In this document: positions 13,988 to 27,065 of the stretch, one piece after another
Layout of the letters: the number at the start of each line of letters is the position of its first letter
Numbering within the stretch: position 1 is the stretch's first letter
NCBI RefSeq assembly: GCF_902713615.1
Contig: NC_052154.1
Span: 80,455,072 to 80,519,071 of the forward strand
Reading direction: 5' to 3'
DNA: 64,000 bases
Source of the DNA: Scyliorhinus canicula
Lineage: Eukaryota
Notes under the pieces: model-generated
Seen by the model: the letters and a program-made list of their open reading frames with translations, nothing else
The model's database searches: none
What the model was told of the DNA's origin: nothing
Position numbers and translations under genes: made by a program

Positions 13988-14933
13988 TGTTGCACGTTTT
14001 ACTATGGGCGTAAAACGCGTTTATTGGAGTGTATTAACACGCCTCCGAGTTCGACGTGTGCTTAACACTACTAGGCTCTGTTGTATGTAATTATTTAGCT
14101 CTGGAGTCGCCAGTTGCCGTATAGACAACGTCACAAGTATTCCAAGGTCAAGTTCAAAGTAATAAAGACGATACACCGATTAGTAAAGTTCAAACGATCA
14201 ATATTTATTATACAGTTATAATAAATACTCATGCACACTAAGAGACTAAGCTATAACTAAACTTAAGTGAACAGAATACTTATCTAACAGGAACAGGCAA
14301 GGTCAGAGAACGAGGCCTTCGTCCTGGTCTTGTACTGCAGCCTTCAGCAAGCGTTCTGGTACTGGGGGTCTAGTGGGCTTGGATCGCGTAGCGAGCGTTG
14401 AACTTACGGTTTCGGCGGCTGGTGCTCAACGGCTGGAGTCAGGATGCAAGATGTCAGTCAGAGCCGGAGCACGAGTTTAACAGACCGGGCTCTGTGGGGA
14501 ATTTGCCTTTATACCCCTCTCTAATGTCCTTGCCCCCTTCTAGGCGGGCTCTACCTTTCGGTACCGATTGGAGCGTTTCCAAACGGCTACCTTCGAAATC
14601 CTCCAATGCGGGGGCTTCCCTCTATGTTGGGGGTGGTTTCGATATTCGTTACTCTGGTGCCATCCTGCCTGCACAACCAATTAAGTGTTACATTGAGATG
14701 GAAATGTTGCCATTGTGTGTGCCTGGATCTGGGCTGCCTCATCAGAATGTTAAGCGCTTTGCCATTAACACCTTTGGCTTGGAGATCTTGCACCTGGCCA
14801 GAAAACTGGTTTGCTGCTTGCAAAATGCTAATTAGTTGAGAGCAGGCTGTCTGTTCTCACTAAACAGGCTTTTCCTTCTGTCTTCCATTTTAGTTTGGCT
14901 CAGTGTCCATTTTGCGTGGCCAGCATGGCTACA
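13988..14933 (-). repeat. 3' LTR (946 bp)
   Basis: Plus strand starts tgttgcacg and ends gcatggctaca; minus-strand TATAAA at 14508-14513 and AATAAA at 14204-14209. Confidence 0.95.
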
Positions 14934-14943
14934 TTCCCTCCTT
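14934..14943 (-). promoter_or_regulatory. Polypurine tract
   Basis: AAGGAGGGAA on minus, directly abutting the 3' LTR. Confidence 0.8.
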
Positions 14944-15264
14944 GTGATCCTCACAATCATACTATTGTGAAGGATCACCTATGTACGTTGCCTTCCTTGT
15001 GTTCTGACCTCTTGCCAGTTCCTGTTCTACTCTATTCTTAAACTATGGGAAGAAGAGAAAAAATTTTTAACTAACATTTCTACTTGGCCCTATGTCAAAG
15101 GGACATGCATTACTACAACTGGGAACCTCTACCTATCACTATTAACCTTAACCTTAACTTAACATTTCATCACTCTAAAACCTTAATCATTCCCACCACA
15201 ACATCACACTTCCCAACTCGGCAGTCGAGTATGGAACAATATAATACATGGCTGAACTTTTTAT

Positions 15265-15621
15265 TTACAGAGTGTTGTAATCAGTGAGGGGTTGAGGGGT
15301 TTGGTGGAATCCGAAGATGGGGGATTGAACTCTATAGATGGGTGAGGTGCTGGAACGAGAGGCTCTCCTCTTCCATTTCCTCAACCTGAGGGTCTGCACT
15401 AGTATGATGAGGATCGCGATCACCAACAGTGATTCGATTATATAGGACATGGAGTACCACGTCATGAATTTAGTGCACCAGGTCTGAACCTCGCTGATCA
15501 GAGCTGAGCACTGGGGGTTTGCTGTAATTGAAACATTTACGGTGGGGGTTGTGGGGGAAACGTGTCTTGTTTCCACACATACACATATAACATTAAACAG
15601 TAATAAGTGGGCTTCCATCAT
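15265..15621 (-). CDS. 118-aa small type I membrane protein in the env position (unknown function)
   Basis: MMEAHLLLFNVICVCVET signal-like segment; ectodomain with NVS sequon and C38/C49; TM YIIESLLVIAILIILVQTL; polybasic RLRKWKRR; C-terminal TDYNTL; good Kozak context (aaaATGATGG). Confidence 0.7.
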   Translation of the reverse strand: MMEAHLLLFNVICVCVETRHVSPTTPTVNVSITANPQCSALISEVQTWCTKFMTWYSMSYIIESLLVIAILIILVQTLRLRKWKRRASRSSTSPIYRVQSPIFGFHQTPQPLTDYNTL

Positions 15622-16564
15622 TTTGCTGTTCTTCTTCTTTCTCTTCCTTCTTCCTCCGGTATTGACAATCCTGGCTTCGACCTCTGTCTCGTCCTTTGAA
15701 ACCTTTGGGATCAAGCACAGTATCTGTCAATACACAGTTTAAGACCTTTACTTGTTAGTGCATCTGTCTTTCAAAACCCAATTGACCCTTTAAAATGACT
15801 GGCTAAGTCACACCCTGTGACTCCCCTCATTTTTTATTTTCAAAAAGCGAATTTAAAGACCAGCATACACCTAACAATCCTTCCTTCTGCGAGCCGTCTC
15901 GCAGGCTGTGCTGATTTACCATCCGAATGTTCCTGGATGTAAATAGCATGTGGGATGGCGGCCGAAGGGCTACCTAACTTAAAATGAAAACAAACTTTGA
16001 AACAAACATCCGAATGAGTTGCGTATGGGCCGCGACGGGTATGAGTTGGATGGAATCCCCGGGTAGGGCGTGCTGTGCCATACCCGAGCTTGGCTGACCA
16101 AGGGTTGGTTCTCAGACAGGGCGGGTCCTCATTGCCGTTTGTCCACTGCCTGAGTAACCTGGAAAAAACGGGTACGAATGTGTTCATCATGACTTGCAGC
16201 CTCTATTTCGCCGAATAGAGGGGCACCTAAAAAAAAAAAACCAAGGGAGCCAAGATGCTCCAACTGAGGACATCACTGAAGTTCTCAGAGATATCTGCAG
16301 ATAAACTATTTGGCGTGTAGCCTTACAACTTTGGAAAGGATCTCCAATCAAACCGAAGTTCTCAAAAGTTTCGGCAGACAAGCTAACGTGTATGTGAGGT
16401 GGTCACAATCTTTTCAGCTGAAAAGAAGATGTCCATCCTCCAGCTGAACAATTTGCAATCCTGAAAACAAACAAACATAAAACGAAGACAAACATACGTG
16501 CAGGTTCCATCAGAAAGGACATCGTTTCCCTCAAACGATTCCTATTTTACATCATCTGGACACC

Positions 16565-19500
16565 TCACTTTGATTCTGCCTCTGTGAACAGGGTCACAAA
16601 GGGGTTGCCGTGTCGGGAGTCAGACACCGTGTCGTCCTGCTCTCCCGGATCCCACACCCTTGTGTGGATCAGGCATGAAACTTTGGAATTGTGTGACCGG
16701 GGGTCACTTTCATCATTGCGGACAAGTCTGTAGGAATTGTCCCTGTGCCATTGTGTAGTGTCGAGTGTGTTGTCGGGGTAGTCGGGGTCGGGTGGTGGTT
16801 CTGGATATTTGAGGTAGGTGACTTCCATGGGGTCACTGGAGTCGGGGTCGTAGTTGGGGCAGTGTGGGCTGTATGGCTGTGTGCTGTCGCTGTCTTCGGA
16901 GTCAGTGTCAGTCCTGCTGTCTCTGCTGTGGCAGCTTGTGGGCGTGTCGGGGCGTGGTCTGTCGTGGTCTGTGGGCGGAGTCGTGGGCGAGTCCGTGGAT
17001 GAACTGGTCTGTGAGGGGGATGGTGGAGAAGTGTCTCTGGTGGGCGGGGTGAAGTGTTCTGCTGCATCCAGCAGGACATGGTGAGCATGGTTGGCCTGTG
17101 TTCCATATGCCTTTAACTGGTTTATATGGAACCACGCGGTCTTCCCATTAGGATACTTTATCCTGTAAACTGAGGGGCTAATTTTGTCCGAAATTGAGTA
17201 GGGACCGGAATATTTTGGAGCCAAAAAACTGCTGGGGTTATAAACAGATAACATTACCTGTTGCCCAACCTGGAATTCTGTGGTGTGTACGGTCTTATTG
17301 AAACAGGCAGTACGTTGCTGTCGGCGTTTCCCTAGCTGGACTGCGGCTGCGATCTGTGCAGACCTCACAGTCTCAACTAGATCTTTAACTGCCTTTTCAT
17401 GTGTGAGGGCCGTCACTTCGGGGCTTGTCATGTCCAGTCCTAAAAGGAATTCTGTACCTTTCATAGGGCGTCCGGTCATGAGTGTATGTGGTGTGTATCC
17501 TGTAGATGTGGAGACAGTGTTCATTATGAACATGAGTGCAAAGGGGAGCACTGAATCCCATGTGGAATTATTCTCTTGAACCATTTTCCTGAGGGTCGTT
17601 TTTAGGGTCCGAAATTGAGTAGGGACCGGAATATTTTGGAGCCAAAAAACTGCTGGGGTTATAAACAGATAACATTACCTGTTGCCCAACCTGGAATTCT
17701 GTGGTGTGTATGGTCTTATTGAAACAGGCAGTACGTTGCTGTCGGCGTTTCCCTAGCTGGACTGCGGCTGCGATCTGTGCAGACCTCACAGTCTCAACTA
17801 GATCTTTAACTGCCTTTTCATGTGTGAGGGCCGTCACTTCGGGGCTTGTCATGTCCAGTCCTAAAAGGAATTCTGTACCTTTCATAGGGCGTCCGGTCAT
17901 GAGTGTATGTGGTGTGTATCCTGTAGATGTGGAGACAGTGTTCCTTATGAACATGAGTGCAAAGGGGAGCACTGAATCCCATGTGGAATTATTCTCTTGA
18001 ACCATTTTCCTGAGGGTCGTTTTTAGGGTCCGATTCATGCGCTCCACAATCCCGCTGGACTGTGGATGATACGCAATATGGAAGTTTTGTTTGATACCGA
18101 ATATTGTCAGGACGTTCCTCATGACCCGTCCTGTAAAGTGAGATCCCTGGTCCGAATCGATACTTCGGGGTAAACCCCATCTCGTGAAGATGTGGTGGGT
18201 CAGGATCTTTGCAGCTGTCTTAGCTGTGTTTGTACGTGATGGAAATGCCTCTACCCATTTTGTAAAGGTATCTATCACCACCAGAACATACTTATAGCCA
18301 TTCCGACAAGGGGGTAATGGACCTATAAAATCGATCTGGAGGTTTGTCCAAGGGCCGTTAACTGGGCGAGTATGCCGAAGTTGTGCTTTCTTAGAATACC
18401 GCTCCGGGTTATTCTGAGCACAAATCAGGCAATTCTCTATATAGTGTGTGACATCTGTCCTGAGATTAGGCCACCAACAGAGTTGCCTGAGGTGCCTCGT
18501 GGTTGAATCAATTCCTTGGTGTCCGTGGTTATCGTGGAATAAAGCAATCATTGCATTTCTATCCTGCTGTGGGACCACATAAAGTTGATCCTTAATGATC
18601 ACACCCTCATGTGTGGTCAGTGCGTGTTTAAAGTGCTCGTACGCAGGCACAAAGTTTCCCTTGAAAACCTCCCTGAGGTCTCCGTCCTGTTTCTGTGCTG
18701 CTACGAGATCTTTAACCTCTGTTTGTGAGACTTGTACTGCGCTCACAGGGGCGCTAGCTGGTGCGCTAGCTGGGGGGGTCCATAAGTGTCCTCTCCTGGA
18801 ACCTGCCTTAGCCAACGCGTCGGCTTTTACATTCCCAGGGGGTGATGACCTATGGTGGCTTCTTACTTTTATTATGCCGAAGGTCCTGTCCTTCGCTTTT
18901 GCTAAAATATGCTGGAGTAGAGGGGCTGATGGAAGGGGTTTTCCGTCTGCGGATACAAAACCTCGTGTCCTCCACAGGGGCAGAAAATCTGTCAAACTGT
19001 TGCATACATATAAACTGTCAGAATATATGTCTGCTGGGCTGGGGAAAGAAGCGGGGTGGTCCACTATATACGCTATGGCTGCTAGCTCTGCTGCCTGCGC
19101 GCCTAAGTGACCGGGTAACTTCAGTGCTATTTCCTCGAGAGCGCACCCCTGCGCGTCCTCGACGTAGATGCCGCATCCAGTGATACGCTCACCATTTAAA
19201 ACTGTGGATGAACCGTCCACGTATATCTTGAGGGGTCCACACGTGTCTGTGTGTGGGGTGCCTTGTGCGGGGTTTCCTAGCTTCCTGGGGGGTGTTTTTG
19301 CTATGAAGGGGCCTGTGTTATGCAGGGGAGCTACAATTTCACAGTCATGGGGCTGTCCGGGGTATTGGAGGTTGTCTGCTAAATATGTGTGTGTGCGTGT
19401 CCGTTTTACAGTAATGTCCCGTCCTTGTAAAAGTAGGGTCCACCTAGCTGCCCTAATCTGGCTAACTGAACCGTCCTTCAGTCGACCGTCTAGTAGTAGC

Positions 19501-21172
19501 TGTGTGGGTGTGTGTTCGGTTAGAATGGTGATGGGGTTTAGTCCGGTTATGTATGAAAAGTACTGTACTGCCCAGAAGACAGCAAGGAGGTGCCTCTCAC
19601 AGGCTGAAAATCCTTGTTCTACCGGGTCTAACAGTCGGGAGGCAACACGGCCGAGAGGGTTAGATCTGTGCTAGCTACCTCGATTGCGTACGGGGAAAGT
19701 TGGTCTGGGACTAGCAGCGCGGGTGCTGCACTAAGGGCTCGTTTTAACTCTTCCACAGCCTCTGTATGCTGCGGAAGCCATTCCCAGGGGGCTCCCTTCT
19801 TAAGGAGGTCTGAAAGTGGGGCGGCTTTTGTCGCGAATCCGTCGATGTGGTTCCGACAATAGCCAACCAGTCCTAAAAACGACCGGAGGGCTGAAACATT
19901 CTGGGGAAGGGGCAATTTGACAATCGAATCAATTCTTTTGAATTCGATCTCGCGTTTGCCGTGCGTGATGACTGATCCCAAATACATCACTTTACTTTCC
20001 AATATCTGGGCCTTTCTGGGGTTAACTTTACATCCAATTGAAGTCAACAATTCCAGGAGTTCGGCCAGAAGCGAAACGTGCTCTGCCTTTGTGTCTGTCT
20101 GCAGTAGTAGGTCGTCTACATACTGTACCAGACATTTGGGGCGGGAAAATTTTTCTAGTCCACTTGCCAGCTGTCGGTGGAAAATGGAGGGGGAATTGTG
20201 GAATCCCTGTGGGAGGCATGTCCACGTATACTGCTGAGTTTTGAAAGTGAATGCAAATTTGTATTGGCACGCTTTTGCCAATGGTATGGACCAGAATCCG
20301 TTACTGATATCCAATACCGTGAAGTACTTGGCGTTGAGACCCTGCTTGAGCATGGTCTCGGGACTAGTAGCTACCGTTGGGGCTACTGCGGGGGTTACTT
20401 TATTGAGTTCCCGATAATCAATGGTCAGATGCCATGATCCATCGGGCTTCCTCACTGGCCAAATAGGGGCATTGTTGGTGGAGGCTACCGTTCTCAGTAC
20501 ACCTTGGTCCAACAAGCTACCTATAACTTTTTCTATTTCCACCTCTGCCTCAAGGGGAAATCTATATTGCTTTTGCGGTCGGGGGTCCTGTCCGGTAACA
20601 TGAACTTGTCCAGTCATTCTGCCACAGTCATGACGGTGACTTGCAAATGCTGTCCTGTGTTTGTTCAGTAGGGCCTTAATTTGTCGGTCGGTGTGGAGTG
20701 TAGTCAGGTCGAATGAGTACTCTCCCACTGCGCTAATCCGATTAGCGTAGTCTCCTACTGTGAGGGTGGCTGGTGCTCTGTCTGCTCTAGCCATGCGCCA
20801 GACACACTGGTTCACTGGGTCGAACGATAAGCTGTGTGTGTTCATAAAATCAATCCCTAGGATGTGTTCTGCTGTCCTGGGAAGGTTTACTAGAACTACG
20901 GGGTGTCTTGTGCTAATGTTCCCTAGCTGAATTGCTATGGGTGCTGTAATGTGCCCCTGCTGCGAGTGTCCGGTGAACCCGCTAAGTGTAATGGTGGAGG
21001 TGGTCGGCCACGTGTCTGAGTGTGCCGTGATCGTGGAGTTAATGGTGGTGCGGGATCCTCCTGTGTCCCACAGTAACTCTATGGGCTTCCCTTTGATTTT
21101 CGCTGTGACTACGGGCCTCCCTGATGAGTCCCATAGTGTGTCACAGACCCAAGTGGGGGAGCCCGGACACCG
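16565..21172 (-). pseudogene. pol: Pro-Pol (protease, RT, degenerate RNase H tether, RNase H, integrase), disrupted
   Basis: Protease LWDTGGS...ILGIDF; RT PVRKPDGSW..IDYRELNK, LDISNGFWS, LPQGFHNSP, YVDD; tether SACERHLLAVFWAV/ILTEHTP; RNase H IYVDGSS, AQAAELAAI, IYSDSLYV, GNVKADALAK; IN HHCC, QIDFIGPLP, IDSDQGSHF, VERMNRTLK, GPY. Frameshifting deletion near 19645 and a 421-bp tandem duplication in IN. Confidence 0.92.
17186..18027. repeat. 421-bp tandem duplication within integrase
   Basis: Units 17186-17606 and 17607-18027, GTCCGA microhomology at 17186, 17607 and 18028, 2 differences between copies; 421 is not a multiple of 3, so the frame shifts. Confidence 0.95.
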
Positions 21173-22921
21173 TCAGTCCGTCTCGTCCACATTGGTGGGT
21201 CCTGACTGTACTGTAACATTATGGATCGGTTTTGACTTGTTGCGGTTCAGAGTGCCTGTCTGCTGGCCTCTCTGAGATCGCTGGGGTGCATTGCACTCTT
21301 TTGCCCAATGCCCTAACTGTCCACAGTTATAGCATTCCTGTCCTTTCTGTTGTGGGCTGCTCTTCCCTTCATTTACCCATGCGGGCTTCTGGTGCTCTCT
21401 GACTGCTTGGATATCTGCAGCAGCCTGAGCCTCTTCTGGGGATCTAACTTTGCCTTTTGCCTGAAGCGATTGCTCCCAAGCGCGGGACAACCTTTTCAGG
21501 ACCCACTTCTCGTTATGGGCCTCTTCTGAGGGGTCATAGCTGTTGCAAGCGCTCTGTCCTGCTTCTGTTGCGTGGGAGATTATTGTGCGCGTCCACTTAA
21601 CCATGTTTTCGCGGGTTAAATGCGCTCTATCTAATTGTCCAAAAACTGCGCTGAAATGAATCCACAGCCTTCCTGCGAATGCTGTGGGGTGTTCGGATCT
21701 TTTCTGCCTGCATTTGTTTAATCCTTCTACTGGGTCACCTCTATTGTACCCAATAGCATCTAAAATGGCGGTGTGCATCTCCTCTAGGCTGCCTCCTGCC
21801 ACGTTCTGTGGGTCGGGGAGGGCTGCTACTACACTTTGGTCTAAACTCAGCACGGTGAGCTTAACCTGCTCTCTCTCATCCAGGCCGTACATGGTAGCCT
21901 GCTGCTTTACTTTAGCAAAGAACTGGTGGGGGTCTGCGGTGGGGAGGAACGGAGTGATCTTTTCACAAGCGTCCCTTAGCTGGGTTACTGTTAAAGGGGT
22001 GGTGTAGGTTATGTCTGGGGCGCCTTCTGATTCGGCTTTTCTCTGCGTGGTTACGGGATTCATGGGTGCGGTTATGGTCTGAGCTGTGGGGGGTTGGGGT
22101 GCCTGTCGTTTCTGCTGAGCTGCTGGCGCACATGTTCCCTGAACATAACGCTGCGCTGTCTCACTTAATTCCTGCCAATCTGGGGCATTTTCCCCATCTA
22201 ACTGTGCTCCAAAGGTGCTTTGGAAGCCATTCTGCACCGAAAGCAGAGATTGCAGTTCCGCAATCTGTTTCCTGCATTTCGCGTGGTCAACTGTGCTTTG
22301 TCTTTGTTCGGTCGTTGCAGCATGGAGTGCTCTCAAAGCTGCTTTGAGATCAGAACATTGCCTCTGCAATGCCTCCACCTGCTTTTCCGATTCCTGTCTT
22401 ATCAGAACGGCACGTTGCACGTCCTGATAGGCTTTCTCATACTGGGTCTGGGAACTGTTCAGATGAGCTAGACAAGACTGGTGAGCCCTCTTGGCATCAT
22501 CCACCTCTCTATCCTTCTCTGCCAACTTCCCTTTTAGATCCAGGTTCTCCTTCTCGATGTCCCTGACATCGACCTTACTCATCCTATTCCTCTCTTCTAA
22601 ATCTGTCCGGAGCGTCCTGATGACCTCCTCTGCGCCTCGCAACTGTGCCAAGCAGGACACAATCGCCATCGGCTTGCGTGCTTTACCTAGGTTCTTTTTG
22701 TGTATTTGAGAGAGGTTCTCCCACCAAGTATGACCTATACTCCCGGGACCTGTCTCCTCATTTGCACAAAACTCTTTCCAAAGGGGCCATCCCTTTCCTT
22801 GTAAATATTTGCGGAGTTCCAGCTCCCACGTGGGACACTGGCCTACCCTGCTACTGTTGCTGGTCGCTGCGACCACAAACTTTGCTGGATCCATCAGACG
22901 TTCCATTGCCTGCATGGCCAT
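21173..22921 (-). CDS. gag: Gag polyprotein (582 aa from MAMQAMERLMDP)
   Basis: Open frame with a coiled-coil region, a capsid-like region and a CCHC zinc knuckle CYNCGQLGHWAKEC; ends at TGA in frame with pro. Confidence 0.9.
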   Translation of the reverse strand: MAMQAMERLMDPAKFVVAATSNSSRVGQCPTWELELRKYLQGKGWPLWKEFCANEETGPGSIGHTWWENLSQIHKKNLGKARKPMAIVSCLAQLRGAEEVIRTLRTDLEERNRMSKVDVRDIEKENLDLKGKLAEKDREVDDAKRAHQSCLAHLNSSQTQYEKAYQDVQRAVLIRQESEKQVEALQRQCSDLKAALRALHAATTEQRQSTVDHAKCRKQIAELQSLLSVQNGFQSTFGAQLDGENAPDWQELSETAQRYVQGTCAPAAQQKRQAPQPPTAQTITAPMNPVTTQRKAESEGAPDITYTTPLTVTQLRDACEKITPFLPTADPHQFFAKVKQQATMYGLDEREQVKLTVLSLDQSVVAALPDPQNVAGGSLEEMHTAILDAIGYNRGDPVEGLNKCRQKRSEHPTAFAGRLWIHFSAVFGQLDRAHLTRENMVKWTRTIISHATEAGQSACNSYDPSEEAHNEKWVLKRLSRAWEQSLQAKGKVRSPEEAQAAADIQAVREHQKPAWVNEGKSSPQQKGQECYNCGQLGHWAKECNAPQRSQRGQQTGTLNRNKSKPIHNVTVQSGPTNVDETD

Positions 22922-23217
22922 TTTCTCTGACTCTCTTTGTATAATTTGGAACAGGGGGTTGTTGGGGTTGTGTTTCAAGAAACGGGTACGGCTTACGCTA
23001 TGTTCCGTTAACAAAACTACCGAAAGTTTGTCGCAACAAAAAGCTTTCAGTTTTACCTTACAGCCCTGTTAGTGCGCATGCACTAAAACACACTTCCGAA
23101 TTACGCTTATTATTTTGAACACCTTGAATACTTGTGATCTCTTTCTTTCTCTGCAATTTGGAGTTCTAAATCAAATTTCAGGTTCCTGGACGGTGTGGGG
23201 TTTCCACTTACAACCGT

Positions 23218-23235
23218 GTCCCGGCGGAGTCGCCA
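23218..23235 (-). promoter_or_regulatory. Primer binding site, tRNA-Arg(UCU)
   Basis: Plus strand gtcccggcggagtcgcca equals the recalled 3' end of a vertebrate tRNA-Arg(UCU) plus CCA (18/18); separated from the LTR by 5 nt. Confidence 0.85.
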
Positions 23236-23240
23236 CTAAA

Positions 23241-24180
23241 TGTTGCACGTTTTACTATGGGCGTAAAACGCGTTTATTGGAGTGTATTAACACGCCTCCG
23301 AGTTCGACGTGTGCTTAACACTACTAGGCTCTGTTGTATGTAATTATTTAGCTCTGGAGTCGCCAGTTGCCGTATAGACAACGTCACAAGTATTCCAAGG
23401 TCAAGTTCAAAGTAATAAAGACGATACACCGATTAGTAAAGTTCAAACGATCAATATTTATTATACAGTTATAATAAATACTCATGCACACTAAGAGACT
23501 AAGCTATAACTAAACTTAAGTGAACAGAATACTTATCTAACAGGAACAGGCAAGGTCAGAGAACGAGGCCTTCGTCCTGGTCTTGTACTGCAGCCTTCAG
23601 CAAGCGTTCTGGTACTGGGGGTCTAGTGGGCTTGGATCGCGTAGCGAGCGTTGAACTTACGGTTTCGGCGGCTGGTGCTCAACGGCTGGAGTCAGGATGC
23701 AAGATGTCAGTCAGAGCCGGAGCACGAGTTTAACAGACCGGGCTCTGTGGGGAATTTGCCTTTATACCCCTCTCTAATGTCCTTGCCCCCTTCTAGGCGG
23801 GCTCTACCTTTCGGTACCGATTGGAGCGTTTCCAAACGGATACCTTCGAAATCCTCCGATCCTTCCCTCTATGTTGGGGGTGGTTTCGATATTCGTTACT
23901 CTGGTGCCATCCTGCCTGCACAACCAATTAAGTGTTACATTGAGATGGAAATGTTGCCATTGTGTGTGCCTGGATCTGGGCTGCCTCATCAGAATGTTAA
24001 GCGCTTTGCCATTAACACCTTTGGCTTGGAGATCTTGCACCTGGCCAGAAAACTGGTTTGCTGCTTGCAAAATGCTAATTAGTTGAGAGCAGGCTGTCTG
24101 TTCTCACTAAACAGGCTTTTCCTTCTGTCTTCCATTTTAGTTTGGCTCAGTGTCCATTTTGCGTGGCCAGCATGGCTACA
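23241..24180 (-). repeat. 5' LTR (940 bp)
   Basis: Matches 13988-14933 except one substitution (aaacggCtacc vs aaacggAtacc) and one short replaced patch 6 nt shorter; minus-strand TATAAA at 23761-23766. Confidence 0.95.
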
Positions 24181-24849: not shown

Positions 24850-27065
24850 GCTATTAAACATGATTATGATGCCCCCGGAAGGTAGAGAGGTGGAGGTAGA
24901 GGTCGCAATGGACGCAGAGAAGGCATTTGATCGAGTAGAATGGGAATATCTGTGGTAGGTACTGGGACGGTTCGGATTTGGGCGGGGCTTTATTGACTGG
25001 GCCAGGTTGCTGTATCAGGCTCCTGTGGCAAGTGTACGAATGAATAGGACAACATCGGACTACTTTAGGCTGCATCTGGGGACGAGGCAGGGTTGCCCCC
25101 TCTCCCCACTGTTGTTTGTGCTAGCTATAGAGCCACTGACAATTGTTCTGAGAGCTTCAAGGGGCTGGAGGGGGCTGAACCGGTGGGGGGAGGGGGGGGG
25201 GGGGTGGAGCACAGAGTTTATGCAGACAATCTGCTCCTGCTTTATGCAGATGACCTACTCCTGTATGTATCGGACCCAATAGAGGGGGTGGAAGAATTCA
25301 TGAAGATTCCAGGGGAATTTGGCCGGTGTTTGGGGTATAAGCTAAATATGGAGAAAAGTGAGATGTTTGCGGTCCAGGCAAGGGGACAGGAGAGGCGATT
25401 GGGGGAGCTGCTGTTTAGACTAATGGGGGAAGCTTTAGGTATCTAGGCATCCAAGTGGCCCGGGAGTGGGACTGGCTGCATAAATTAAATCTGGCCCGAC
25501 TAGTAGATCAAATGAAGGACGATTTTCGGAGATGTGACATGCTTCTGTTGTCACTAGGTGGGAAGGTGCAGACGGTGAAGATGACGGTCCTCCTGTGATT
25601 CCTGTTTGTATTACAGTCTCTCCCCATCTTTATCCCGAGATCCTTTTTTAAATGGGTCAACAAAGTGATCACTGGCTTTGTTTGGGCGGGAAAGACCCCG
25701 CGAGTAAGGAAGGTAATGCTTAAGCGGAGTCGGGGAGAGGGCGGGCTGCTATTGCCAAATTTTAGTAACTATTACTGGGCGGTAAATATAGCCATGATTA
25801 GGAAGTGGGTGGGTGGGGGAAGGGTTGGCATTGGAGCGTATAGAGTTGGCTTAATGCAAGGGCACCAGTTTGGGGTCATTGGTAACTGCGCCTCTGTCAT
25901 TCCCGTCGGCATGGTACTCCACCAGCCCCATGGTGGTGGCAGCCCTGAGAGTCTGGGGGCAATGGAGGAGACATGTGGGAGCAGATGGAGCATCGGTTTG
26001 GTCTCCAATCTGTAATAATCGCCAGTTTGCCCCGGGAAGGCTGGAGTGGGTTTCCAGAGATGGCGGAGAGCAGGGATTGAGAGGATGGGGGTTATGTTTA
26101 TAAAGGGGACCTTTCTGCGTTTGAGGGCATTGGAGGAGAAGTTTGGATTGGCGAGGGGAAACAAATTGAGGTACCTGCAGGTGCGGGACTTCCTACGTAG
26201 ACAGGTTTCAACCTTCCCGCTCCTACCACTAAGGGGGATTCAGGACAGGGTAGTTTCCAGAGGGTGGGTGGGAGAAGGGAGCATCTCTGACATTTACAAG
26301 GAACTTATGGAGTCAGAGGAGACGCAGAATGAGGAGCTGAAGCGCAAGTGGGAGGAGGAGCTGGGAGGAGAGATAGATGATGGTCTATGGTAGAGCCAAC
26401 GTGTCCACAACATTTGCCAGGCTCAGCCTGATACAATTCAAGGTTGTTCATCGGGCACACGTGACAGTGTCCCGGATAAGCAGATTCTTTGGGGTGGAAT
26501 ACCGGTGTGCAAAGCGTGCGGGAGGGCCAGTGAACCATATCCACATGTTCTGGGCATGTCCAAAGCTTAGGGGATTTTGGCAGGGGTTTGCAGATGTCAT
26601 GTCCACGGTGTTAAAAACAAGGGTGGCACCGAGTCTGGAGGTGGCGATTTTCGGGGTGTCGGAAGATCCGGGAATCCAGGAGGAGAAAAAGGCAGACGTT
26701 CTGGCCTTTGCTTCCCTGGTAGCCCAGTGATGGGTACTATTAGCTTGAAAGCCCCCGATGTCGGAGACCTGGCTATTGGACATGGCTAGCTTTCTCTGAC
26801 TGGAGAAAATTAAGTTCGCCCTGAGAGGGTCAATGTTAGGGTTCTCCCGGAGGTGGCAACCGTTCATCGACTTCTTTGTGGAAAATTAATCGTCAGCAGA
26901 AGTGGGGGGGGGGGGGGGGGGGGTTAGTTTAGCTTACAGTAGGGGGTTAATAAAGGTGGGACCTGTAAGGGAGGGAGACGGCTTTTGCACTATGTTTATA
27001 CATTCATGTACATTGTTTCTTTTGTTGTTGTAAAACCAAAAATACCTCAATAAAATGTTTATTAA
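24850..27065 (+). mobile_element. 5'-truncated L1-clade LINE (degenerate ORF2)
   Basis: RT motifs (HLGTRQGCPLSPLLFVLAIEPL, LYADDLLLY), C-terminal C..C.....HIHMFWACP, AATAAA and A-rich tail at about 27048-27075; many stops and frameshifts. Confidence 0.9.

Follow-up and report, generated by a model that had tools for sequence, protein, structure and literature searches.

The window analysed here, a 64,000-nucleotide stretch of the Scyliorhinus canicula genome (contig NC_052154.1, positions 80,455,072 to 80,519,071), carries on its minus strand, at 13988–24180, a long terminal repeat (LTR) element that we classify as a defective, env-less copy of an early-branching, SnRV-like canonical endogenous retrovirus (ERV); to this classification, taken together with the copying mechanism set out below, we give a probability of about three in four. 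Its family is a young, high-copy, env-less ERV of the catshark germ line. What is new here is a high-copy, SnRV-like ERV that has no env but has a small, conserved gene for a predicted membrane protein, and in which readthrough of a UGA is likely; a literature search that left Repbase, Dfam, subscription papers and the Loki and bioRxiv supplements uncovered returned no account of the family or of its small open reading frame (ORF).

The classification is carried by the reverse transcriptase (RT). In a tree with Gypsy-type outgroups (LG+G4, 43 rows), the canonical retroviruses, including the element, formed a clade without Loki (support 100/95), and a second tree with the same type of outgroup and a mixture model (31 rows) recovered this clade at 100/98; both trees were subsampled, long or redundant rows having been dropped. 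Loki was the sister of the canonical clade in both, which is the published arrangement, and its own clade (100/100) did not include the element. Forcing the element alone together with Loki was rejected (approximately unbiased [AU] test, p 0.011); joining its group of eight rows to Loki was not (p 0.12). The first RT trees, with caulimovirus-type outgroups only, were unstable for Loki and were replaced by these. Loki rows were labelled by motif agreement with the published alignment (one protein matches the Loki-Str row), foamy rows by a motif from the solved foamy RT, gamma rows by grouping with a named PERV, and Gypsy-type rows by a single active RNase H with mostly PFG motifs; beta and caulimovirus rows are what we take them to be, and SnRV was the only reference for clade Huo. 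The nearest named RT proteins, from frog, coelacanth, and turtle (49–58%), are deposited as NYNRIN-like. Among 13 confirmed viral contigs the best RT match (44%) was a contig identified as SnRV by the motif of its 205-aa 3′ ORF (PMC12193657); a single-protein scan of the viral contigs with the RT of the element gave seven pattern matches, none confirmed.

The initial annotation had likened the element to Loki and Odin lineages, citing its dual RNase H, and had set it near the boundary of retrotransposons and retroviruses. The RT does not bear out the likeness, since the element falls inside the canonical retroviruses and has LPQG rather than PFG, and a dual RNase H, being found in every retrovirus, does not point to Loki or Odin. 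What survives of the boundary position is the early branching, together with an integrase, tether, and second RNase H that score or group nearer to Loki than to SnRV; the element would lie near the boundary, on its retrovirus side. The phylogeny that had been proposed as a check came out divided, the RT going with canonical retroviruses, not Gypsy, and RNase H2 and integrase leaning to Loki in borderline tests. RT motifs described as spuma-like are present, but SnRV matches them as well or better (LDISNGFW identical; LPQGFHASP). The annotation had tentatively supposed that no such lineage was characterised from cartilaginous fish; SnRV-like ERVs have been reported from one such fish (PMC4422223). 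Membership of the foamy viruses is contradicted by an RT outside the foamy clade, a gag with a CCHC knuckle, and a pol in frame behind gag; membership of Ty3/Gypsy by an RT outside Metaviridae and the lack of a single active Gypsy-type RNase H. Both the RT position and the tether with an intact second RNase H place the element in Retroviridae, from which it departs in having no env.

Judged from these sequences, its group probably consists of early-branching canonical ERVs that share ancestral or exchanged domains with Loki. The group also takes in Heptranchias perlo and so spans sharks and bony fishes; in the integrase and RNase H2 trees an Anguilla anguilla protein is almost identical to one assembled protein. 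A toad "posterior protein-like" gene model has a coiled-coil part resembling gag fused to an integrase of this group, which hints at an origin of the amphibian posterior-protein genes in these ERVs.

The features of the studied copy, in the direction of its transcription, are as follows.

23241–24180, minus strand: 5′ LTR, 940 bp, with TG...CA ends, compared with the 3′ LTR.
23218–23235, minus strand: primer binding site of 18 nt, 5 nt past the LTR, which would pair with the 3′ end of tRNA-Arg(UCU).
21173–22921, minus strand: gag, 582 aa counted from the first ATG, ending in TGA (ORF and Pfam).
21170–21175, minus strand: in-frame UGA-CGG at the gag/pol junction, a predicted type II readthrough signal.
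19628–21172, minus strand: first part of pol, with protease, RT (YVDD, LPQG), and the start of the tether; frameshift near 19644.
17568–19670, minus strand: second part of pol, with the remaining degenerate RNase H (tether), second RNase H, and integrase zinc finger and core.
17186–18033, strand not assigned: 421-bp tandem duplication in the integrase, only in the studied copy.
16565–17674, minus strand: integrase C-terminus, with an SH3/GPY-type module and a long Pro/Thr/Asp-rich tail (Pfam).
15900–16190, minus strand: conserved non-coding block, 80–94% identical between subfamilies.
15265–15621, minus strand: ORF for a small predicted membrane protein of 118 aa, lying where env would be.
14934–14943, minus strand: short polypurine tract adjoining the 3′ LTR.
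13988–14933, minus strand: 3′ LTR, 946 bp, with TATAAA at LTR position 421 and AATAAA at 725.

The boundaries are exact, and the two LTRs are nearly identical, differing by two substitutions and one 6-nt indel; the flanks GTTA and GTTG form a 4-bp target-site duplication (TSD) with one mismatch. The complement of the primer binding site was found in a tRNA-Arg(TCT) gene of the host genome, ARAGORN having called one of the three loci tested. Copies differ at this site: some carry the exact tRNA-Arg(UCU) end, others a second tRNA-like variant, and many have one or two added bases, while a few match over more than 18 nt; the variation could have arisen if reverse transcription copied more than one kind of primer tRNA, and at four loci examined for a second tRNA-Arg form ARAGORN called no tRNA-Arg.

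Every motif quoted in the initial annotation is present in the sequence, and Pfam and alignment both agree with its CCHC gag, degenerate first RNase H, and intact second RNase H. Gag has a long predicted coiled coil, a capsid-like helical region, and a single CCHC knuckle (Pfam zf-CCHC), and its ratio of nonsynonymous to synonymous substitution (dN/dS) is 0.08–0.10; the capsid region has a feature-level likeness to Retrotrans_gag clusters that serves as a lead, and fold prediction was uninformative (mean pLDDT 46.7, zero Foldseek matches). Pol matched aspartyl protease, RVT_1 (E 2e-32), Gypsy-type RT_RNaseH (1e-09), and RNase_H PF00075 (5e-16), and the integrase matched H2C2, rve, and SH3_Tf2-1. 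Aligned with Gypsy-type proteins that have a single RNase H, the first RNase H has all three acidic catalytic positions replaced, a loss found likewise in relatives of the element and in Loki proteins; in the same alignment the D-E-D-H-D set of the second is intact. The dN/dS is 0.05–0.09 for the RNase H2–integrase part and 0.18–0.47 for the Pro/Thr/Asp-rich integrase tail.

The studied copy is defective and its pol is broken. Forty nucleotides near 19644 that are present in all 20 sister copies are gone here, giving the frameshift in the tether; the 421-bp duplication occurs in only 1 of the 40 sequences holding that stretch, which is the studied copy itself; and the integrase C-terminus is out of frame with the core. 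An uninterrupted pol frame of 1,408 codons is present in 6 of the 20 sisters. Flanking the element, at 24850–27000 and 40065–41059 of the window, lie degraded RT fragments, which we take to be LINE-like and which recur elsewhere in the window.

The copy-number and LTR-identity check that had been proposed came out in favour of a young family. Exact matches to the LTR–primer binding site junction number 1,678 in the host genome (4.22 Gb; control 0), and LTR-end matches 5,390 (control 85). Two complete LTRs were present in 16 of 20 sisters, which had been selected by RT similarity and are biased to young copies; the 16 are 9.78–9.93 kb long, their LTR divergence was 0–2.3% (median about 0.26%), and 13 had perfect 4-bp TSDs, these readings having been made with a one-base offset in the LTR query. 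Under either of two assumed shark substitution rates, 2.2e-10 (PMC4422223) or 5e-10 (PMC10699275), an LTR divergence of 0.2% corresponds to roughly 2–5 million years. The annotation of the host as a probable shark holds, the integrase being 87% identical to a Scyliorhinus torazame protein. Some copies are 94–98% identical internally, yet their LTRs are about 80% identical to those of the studied copy, which suggests LTR exchange between subfamilies. At 48.30–48.39 Mb of one host contig there are five junction matches on the same strand, the last four about 18 kb apart; the element has likely been amplified there, in tandem or as part of a larger segment. Other copies are interrupted by foreign insertions, one of which has an RT-like frame and terminal repeats; elsewhere a diverged copy lies nested in the opposite orientation, and one locus has an inverted duplication.

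Behind the gag TGA the reading frame runs on into pol. Of 52 aligned copies, 51 have this TGA and 49 have CGG directly after it (59 copies were examined, of which 7 did not align); UGA-CGG is a type II readthrough context (PMC3159437). The stem-loop after the UGA is weak (z −1.85; 10 of 200 shuffles as good). The non-coding block shows no consistent coding signal in six frames and has predicted hairpins, with a covariation term of only −0.74 and two-sided change in 5 of 46 pairs; it matched nothing in Rfam. It is better conserved than the adjoining small ORF and is possibly a cis-acting RNA element, for example in RNA export or splicing. Two further frames were rejected as genes: a 120-codon frame at 15840–16202 (dN/dS above 1, not significant, frameshifts) and a frame in the LTR (dN/dS about 0.65, not significant, frameshifts).

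The studied copy has no env-sized ORF between integrase and 3′ LTR, so that the description of the element as env-less stands in that sense, but the env position is not empty, holding the small ORF and the non-coding block. The post-integrase region of 1.6–1.8 kb is common to all 20 RT-selected sisters, and of 19 junction-selected copies from one contig 17 were colinear to the 3′ LTR and two were interrupted by other sequence. The host genome does have env-bearing ERVs (all 78 scored of 1,387 candidates matched TLV_coat); none of 20 sampled TLV_coat loci belonged to the family of the element, the adjoining RT being 34–42% identical where present. A stricter search of the host genome with the transmembrane region of the SnRV env, run without a positive control, gave no match, and no Pfam family matches the SnRV env significantly, so that a Pfam-based search could miss an env of this type. 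The lack of env more probably reflects its loss than a primitive condition; many ERVs are secondarily without env (PMC4299795), and the missing env therefore does not exclude ERV status.

The small ORF is under purifying selection, as are gag and pol. Its in-frame dN/dS was 0.10–0.44 in all 11 pairwise comparisons with diverged copies (Nei-Gojobori, 94 codons, each p at most 0.003), which all share the studied copy and are not independent; the other sense frames gave 0.68–10, and one antisense frame showed the usual coding shadow, as for pol. Homologues at about 50–65% identity follow gag and pol of the same ERV lineage at 19 of 20 host-genome loci, the wrong side having been retrieved at the twentieth. 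The layout, with topology read from hydropathy only, is a hydrophobic N-terminus, a Pro/Thr-rich ectodomain carrying a sequon for N-glycosylation, an amphipathic segment rich in Trp (moment about 0.5 at residues 43–56), a membrane helix (hydropathy peak near residues 58–77), and a polybasic tail with seven K/R within residues 79–89. An A-x-A type end of the N-terminus in older subfamilies, with its hydrophobicity, suggests a signal peptide. The Trp-rich segment, helix, and basic patch are best kept; diverged versions retain the sequon, W-C..F..WYS.SY, the helix, and an RKW.RRA patch. A HMMER profile scan of 1.84 billion proteins gave four hits, all Scyliorhinus gene models (S. canicula, S. torazame). 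One of these, an S. torazame HEPACAM2-like model (an Ig-domain host gene), ends in the membrane segment of the small ORF, possibly by exon capture or as a prediction artefact; the remaining three are likewise gene models built on the small ORF. A word-index protein search had no hit, Pfam gave nothing significant, and Atlas hits were all below 0.9.

The copying mechanism that we propose would begin with RNA driven by the LTR and primed by tRNA-Arg(UCU). Pol would be made as Gag-Pol by readthrough of UGA-CGG, and the second RNase H would cleave, the first serving as a structural tether. The family would have lost env and then multiplied in the germ line like an LTR retrotransposon; damage to the studied copy would date from its insertion or later, and the copy could not supply its own Pol. 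Most tentatively, the small protein would be made from spliced RNA, enter the secretory pathway, and work at the cell surface.

For the role of this protein we rank first, while holding it at clearly under an even chance, that it helps particles pass at cell contacts without an envelope, by analogy with sORF2 of insect retrotransposons. In size and layout (118 aa, one helix, polybasic patch, amphipathic segment) the small ORF agrees with the ranges taken for sORF2 and FAST proteins, namely 60–210 aa, one membrane helix, an ectodomain of 10–50 aa, at least three K/R within 15 aa after the helix, and an amphipathic ectodomain segment, provided, for the ectodomain (about 40 aa), that cleavage removes the predicted signal peptide. 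The protein may thus act in the manner of sORF2, as a candidate rather than an established member.

Several observations weigh against the classification or this role. SnRV was only weakly supported on RT as sister of the group (79/92 and 69/68), grouping with SnRV on integrase was rejected (AU p 0.016), one RT tree without Gypsy outgroups pulled Loki into the group, and the trees held no Odin sequence. Searches with the SnRV env and TLV_coat found no env-bearing member of the lineage, so that loss of env is read from tree position only. The small protein has a predicted cleaved signal peptide, unlike most sORF2 and FAST proteins, in which the membrane helix serves as a reverse signal anchor, keeps a single ectodomain cysteine between subfamilies, and has no MGxxxS/T myristoylation motif, an MG start being found in no copy displayed; this motif is also missing from two of the six sORF2 proteins of Drosophila and from some of those of nackednaviruses (10.1101/2025.03.14.642691). 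A splice joint from leader to small ORF was not listed for contigs of four presumed RNA runs (all 30 bins covered), which we count neither for nor against.

The small protein might instead have an accessory role and act on the host cell, removing restriction factors or receptors or directing Gag to an internal membrane, in a manner unrelated to passage; we put this not far short of an even chance. It departs from FAST and sORF2 in its predicted signal peptide and its sequon for glycosylation, and it evolves faster than pol (about 50–65% versus 75–95% identity). Host-facing proteins often evolve fast. SnRV, too, has several small 3′ ORFs (PMC12193657). Yet conservation is highest in the parts that FAST and sORF2 have in common, namely the amphipathic segment next to the membrane, the helix, and the basic patch (PMC7830690; 10.1101/2025.03.14.642691), and a surface protein would be hard to explain in an element confined to its own cell.

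The origin of the ORF is a separate matter. An account compatible with either function, though an unlikely one in our estimate, makes it a shrunken env, in which an old internal deletion joined the signal peptide to the membrane-proximal end and the product is still useful. It sits at the env site with env topology (signal peptide, C-terminal helix, tail), and 51 of 53 aligned copies have a conserved AG some 105 nt before it; on the other hand, there is no env-like protein among the four profile hits, no match to the SnRV env or a Pfam env family, and the short form is fixed across subfamilies 70–80% identical in DNA.

Rather doubtful is the proposal that the element is a Loki/Odin-side lineage, primitively env-less, whose canonical RT position is either artefactual or due to an exchange of the RT. 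Other domains do lean that way: the integrase scored 209–230 bits against 12 of the 13 Loki proteins matched and 128 against SnRV, and the tether 66–70 against most Loki proteins and 52 against SnRV; Loki integrase was nested among the relatives of the element (97/86), and keeping those relatives together without Loki was marginally rejected (AU p 0.049); the RNase H2 tree grouped the element with Loki and foamy (97/92). The tests of Loki affinity in these two domains ranged over AU p 0.049–0.094, in alignments that were short (231 columns for integrase and 145 for RNase H2) and run under one model and with no Odin. The union of the whole group with Loki, which the RT does not reject, points the same way. 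The two Gypsy-outgroup RT trees, with canonical monophyly and the published Loki position, the rejection of a union of the element itself with Loki, and LPQG in place of PFG speak against the proposal, as do an RT-like topology that the integrase does not reject (AU p 0.056) and the shuffling of RNase H and integrase domains already reported (PMC7947760).

Spread as infectious particles with Env borrowed from other ERVs of the genome is very improbable: env-bearing ERVs exist there, but those sampled are of distant lineages, no positive sign of complementation was seen, and the high copy number fits the intracellular copying of env-less ERVs.

Within the preferred reading, an early-branching canonical ERV that has lost env, a joint and improbable extension would be that env was traded for a minimal sORF2/FAST-like protein, with envelope-independent spread to thousands of germ-line copies, and that the group is the stock from which Loki (and Odin) drew integrase and second RNase H. 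ERVs without env are usually taken to be confined to the expressing cell, and what remains of their env to decay. In this family purifying selection has kept a small, predicted surface protein in the env position, across subfamilies 20–30% diverged in DNA and in two catshark species; sORF2-like action, if true, would extend envelope-independent transmission to Retroviridae. The family has more than a thousand young copies, and its host is a laboratory fish. Its poorly sampled group, which takes in sharks, eel, coelacanth, frogs, and turtles, combines a canonical RT with Loki-related integrase and RNase H2, and adding it to the published trees tests whether the lack of env in Odin is primitive and where the Loki domains originated. 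Readthrough at UGA-CGG, if it occurs, would differ from the UAG readthrough of gammaretroviruses (PMC3159437).

Among known systems, SnRV (clade Huo) and CmiERV lineage I of the elephant shark come nearest, with LDISNGFW/LPQGFH and YVDD in common. SnRV likewise has a coiled-coil gag with one CCHC, a pol in frame behind the gag stop, a dual RNase H, and small 3′ ORFs; it differs in its env frame of 1,042 codons, UAG-GGC rather than UGA-CGG at the gag/pol stop, its integrase grouping, and the lack of a counterpart of the small ORF, and the element is present in thousands of copies. Lineage I CmiERVs cluster with SnRV; CmiERVs are defined by a downstream env, which the screen required and which the element does not have (PMC4422223).

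Loki (PMC7947760) shares the well-preserved Gypsy-like tether, the second RNase H, and a related integrase and RNase H2, and the Loki-type Bik-1 has a coiled-coil gag (10.1101/2024.03.25.586437). Its RT clade excludes the element, with PFG against LPQG, and neither its Mononegavirales-like fusion env (PF00523) nor its smc gene has a counterpart here, there being no env-sized ORF and no Pfam match in the 3′ ORFs. A stricter search of the host genome with a Loki protein found nothing above 36% identity, a Loki motif pattern had zero matches there, and the available text of PMC7947760 has no mention of shark, Chondrichthyes, or cartilaginous. Odin (PMC9040795) has a dual RNase H and no env, as here, and an integrase similar by eye; it has LPFG/FVDD and 1–6 copies, against LPQG/YVDD, at least 1,678 copies, a vertebrate host, and an extra membrane ORF. 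Judged by an RT outside the Loki side and without the PFG of the Odin rows, rather than from a tree that includes Odin, the element is probably not an Odin.

ERV-Spuma.0-Sca (PMC10699275) is also a catshark ERV with paired LTRs and young copies. At 9,220 nt, with an 866-nt LTR, 2,946-nt pol, and 1,326-nt env slot, and grouped with foamy-like ERVs, it is a different family by anatomy from the element (about 9,820 nt, 945-nt LTR, pol frame of 1,408 codons); a motif search of the available supplements of that paper, weak because long cells are cut, had no match. ERV4 (PMC4299795) has a 5-bp TSD and an env and lacks both a zinc finger in gag and a GPY/F module, whereas the element has a 4-bp TSD, a CCHC knuckle, and an SH3/GPY module.

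The sORF2 elements (MDG1 group) and FAST proteins differ from the element in that the host element of sORF2 belongs to Metaviridae rather than Retroviridae, in that the small protein here has a predicted cleaved signal peptide and N-glycan and no MGxxxS/T motif, and in sequence, no homology having been found to its ORF, which lies after pol. What they share with it is an env-less LTR element (sORF2) and a single-pass protein of 60–210 aa, predicted N-out, with a short ectodomain that includes an amphipathic segment, and with a polybasic patch behind the helix (10.1101/2025.03.14.642691; PMC7830690).

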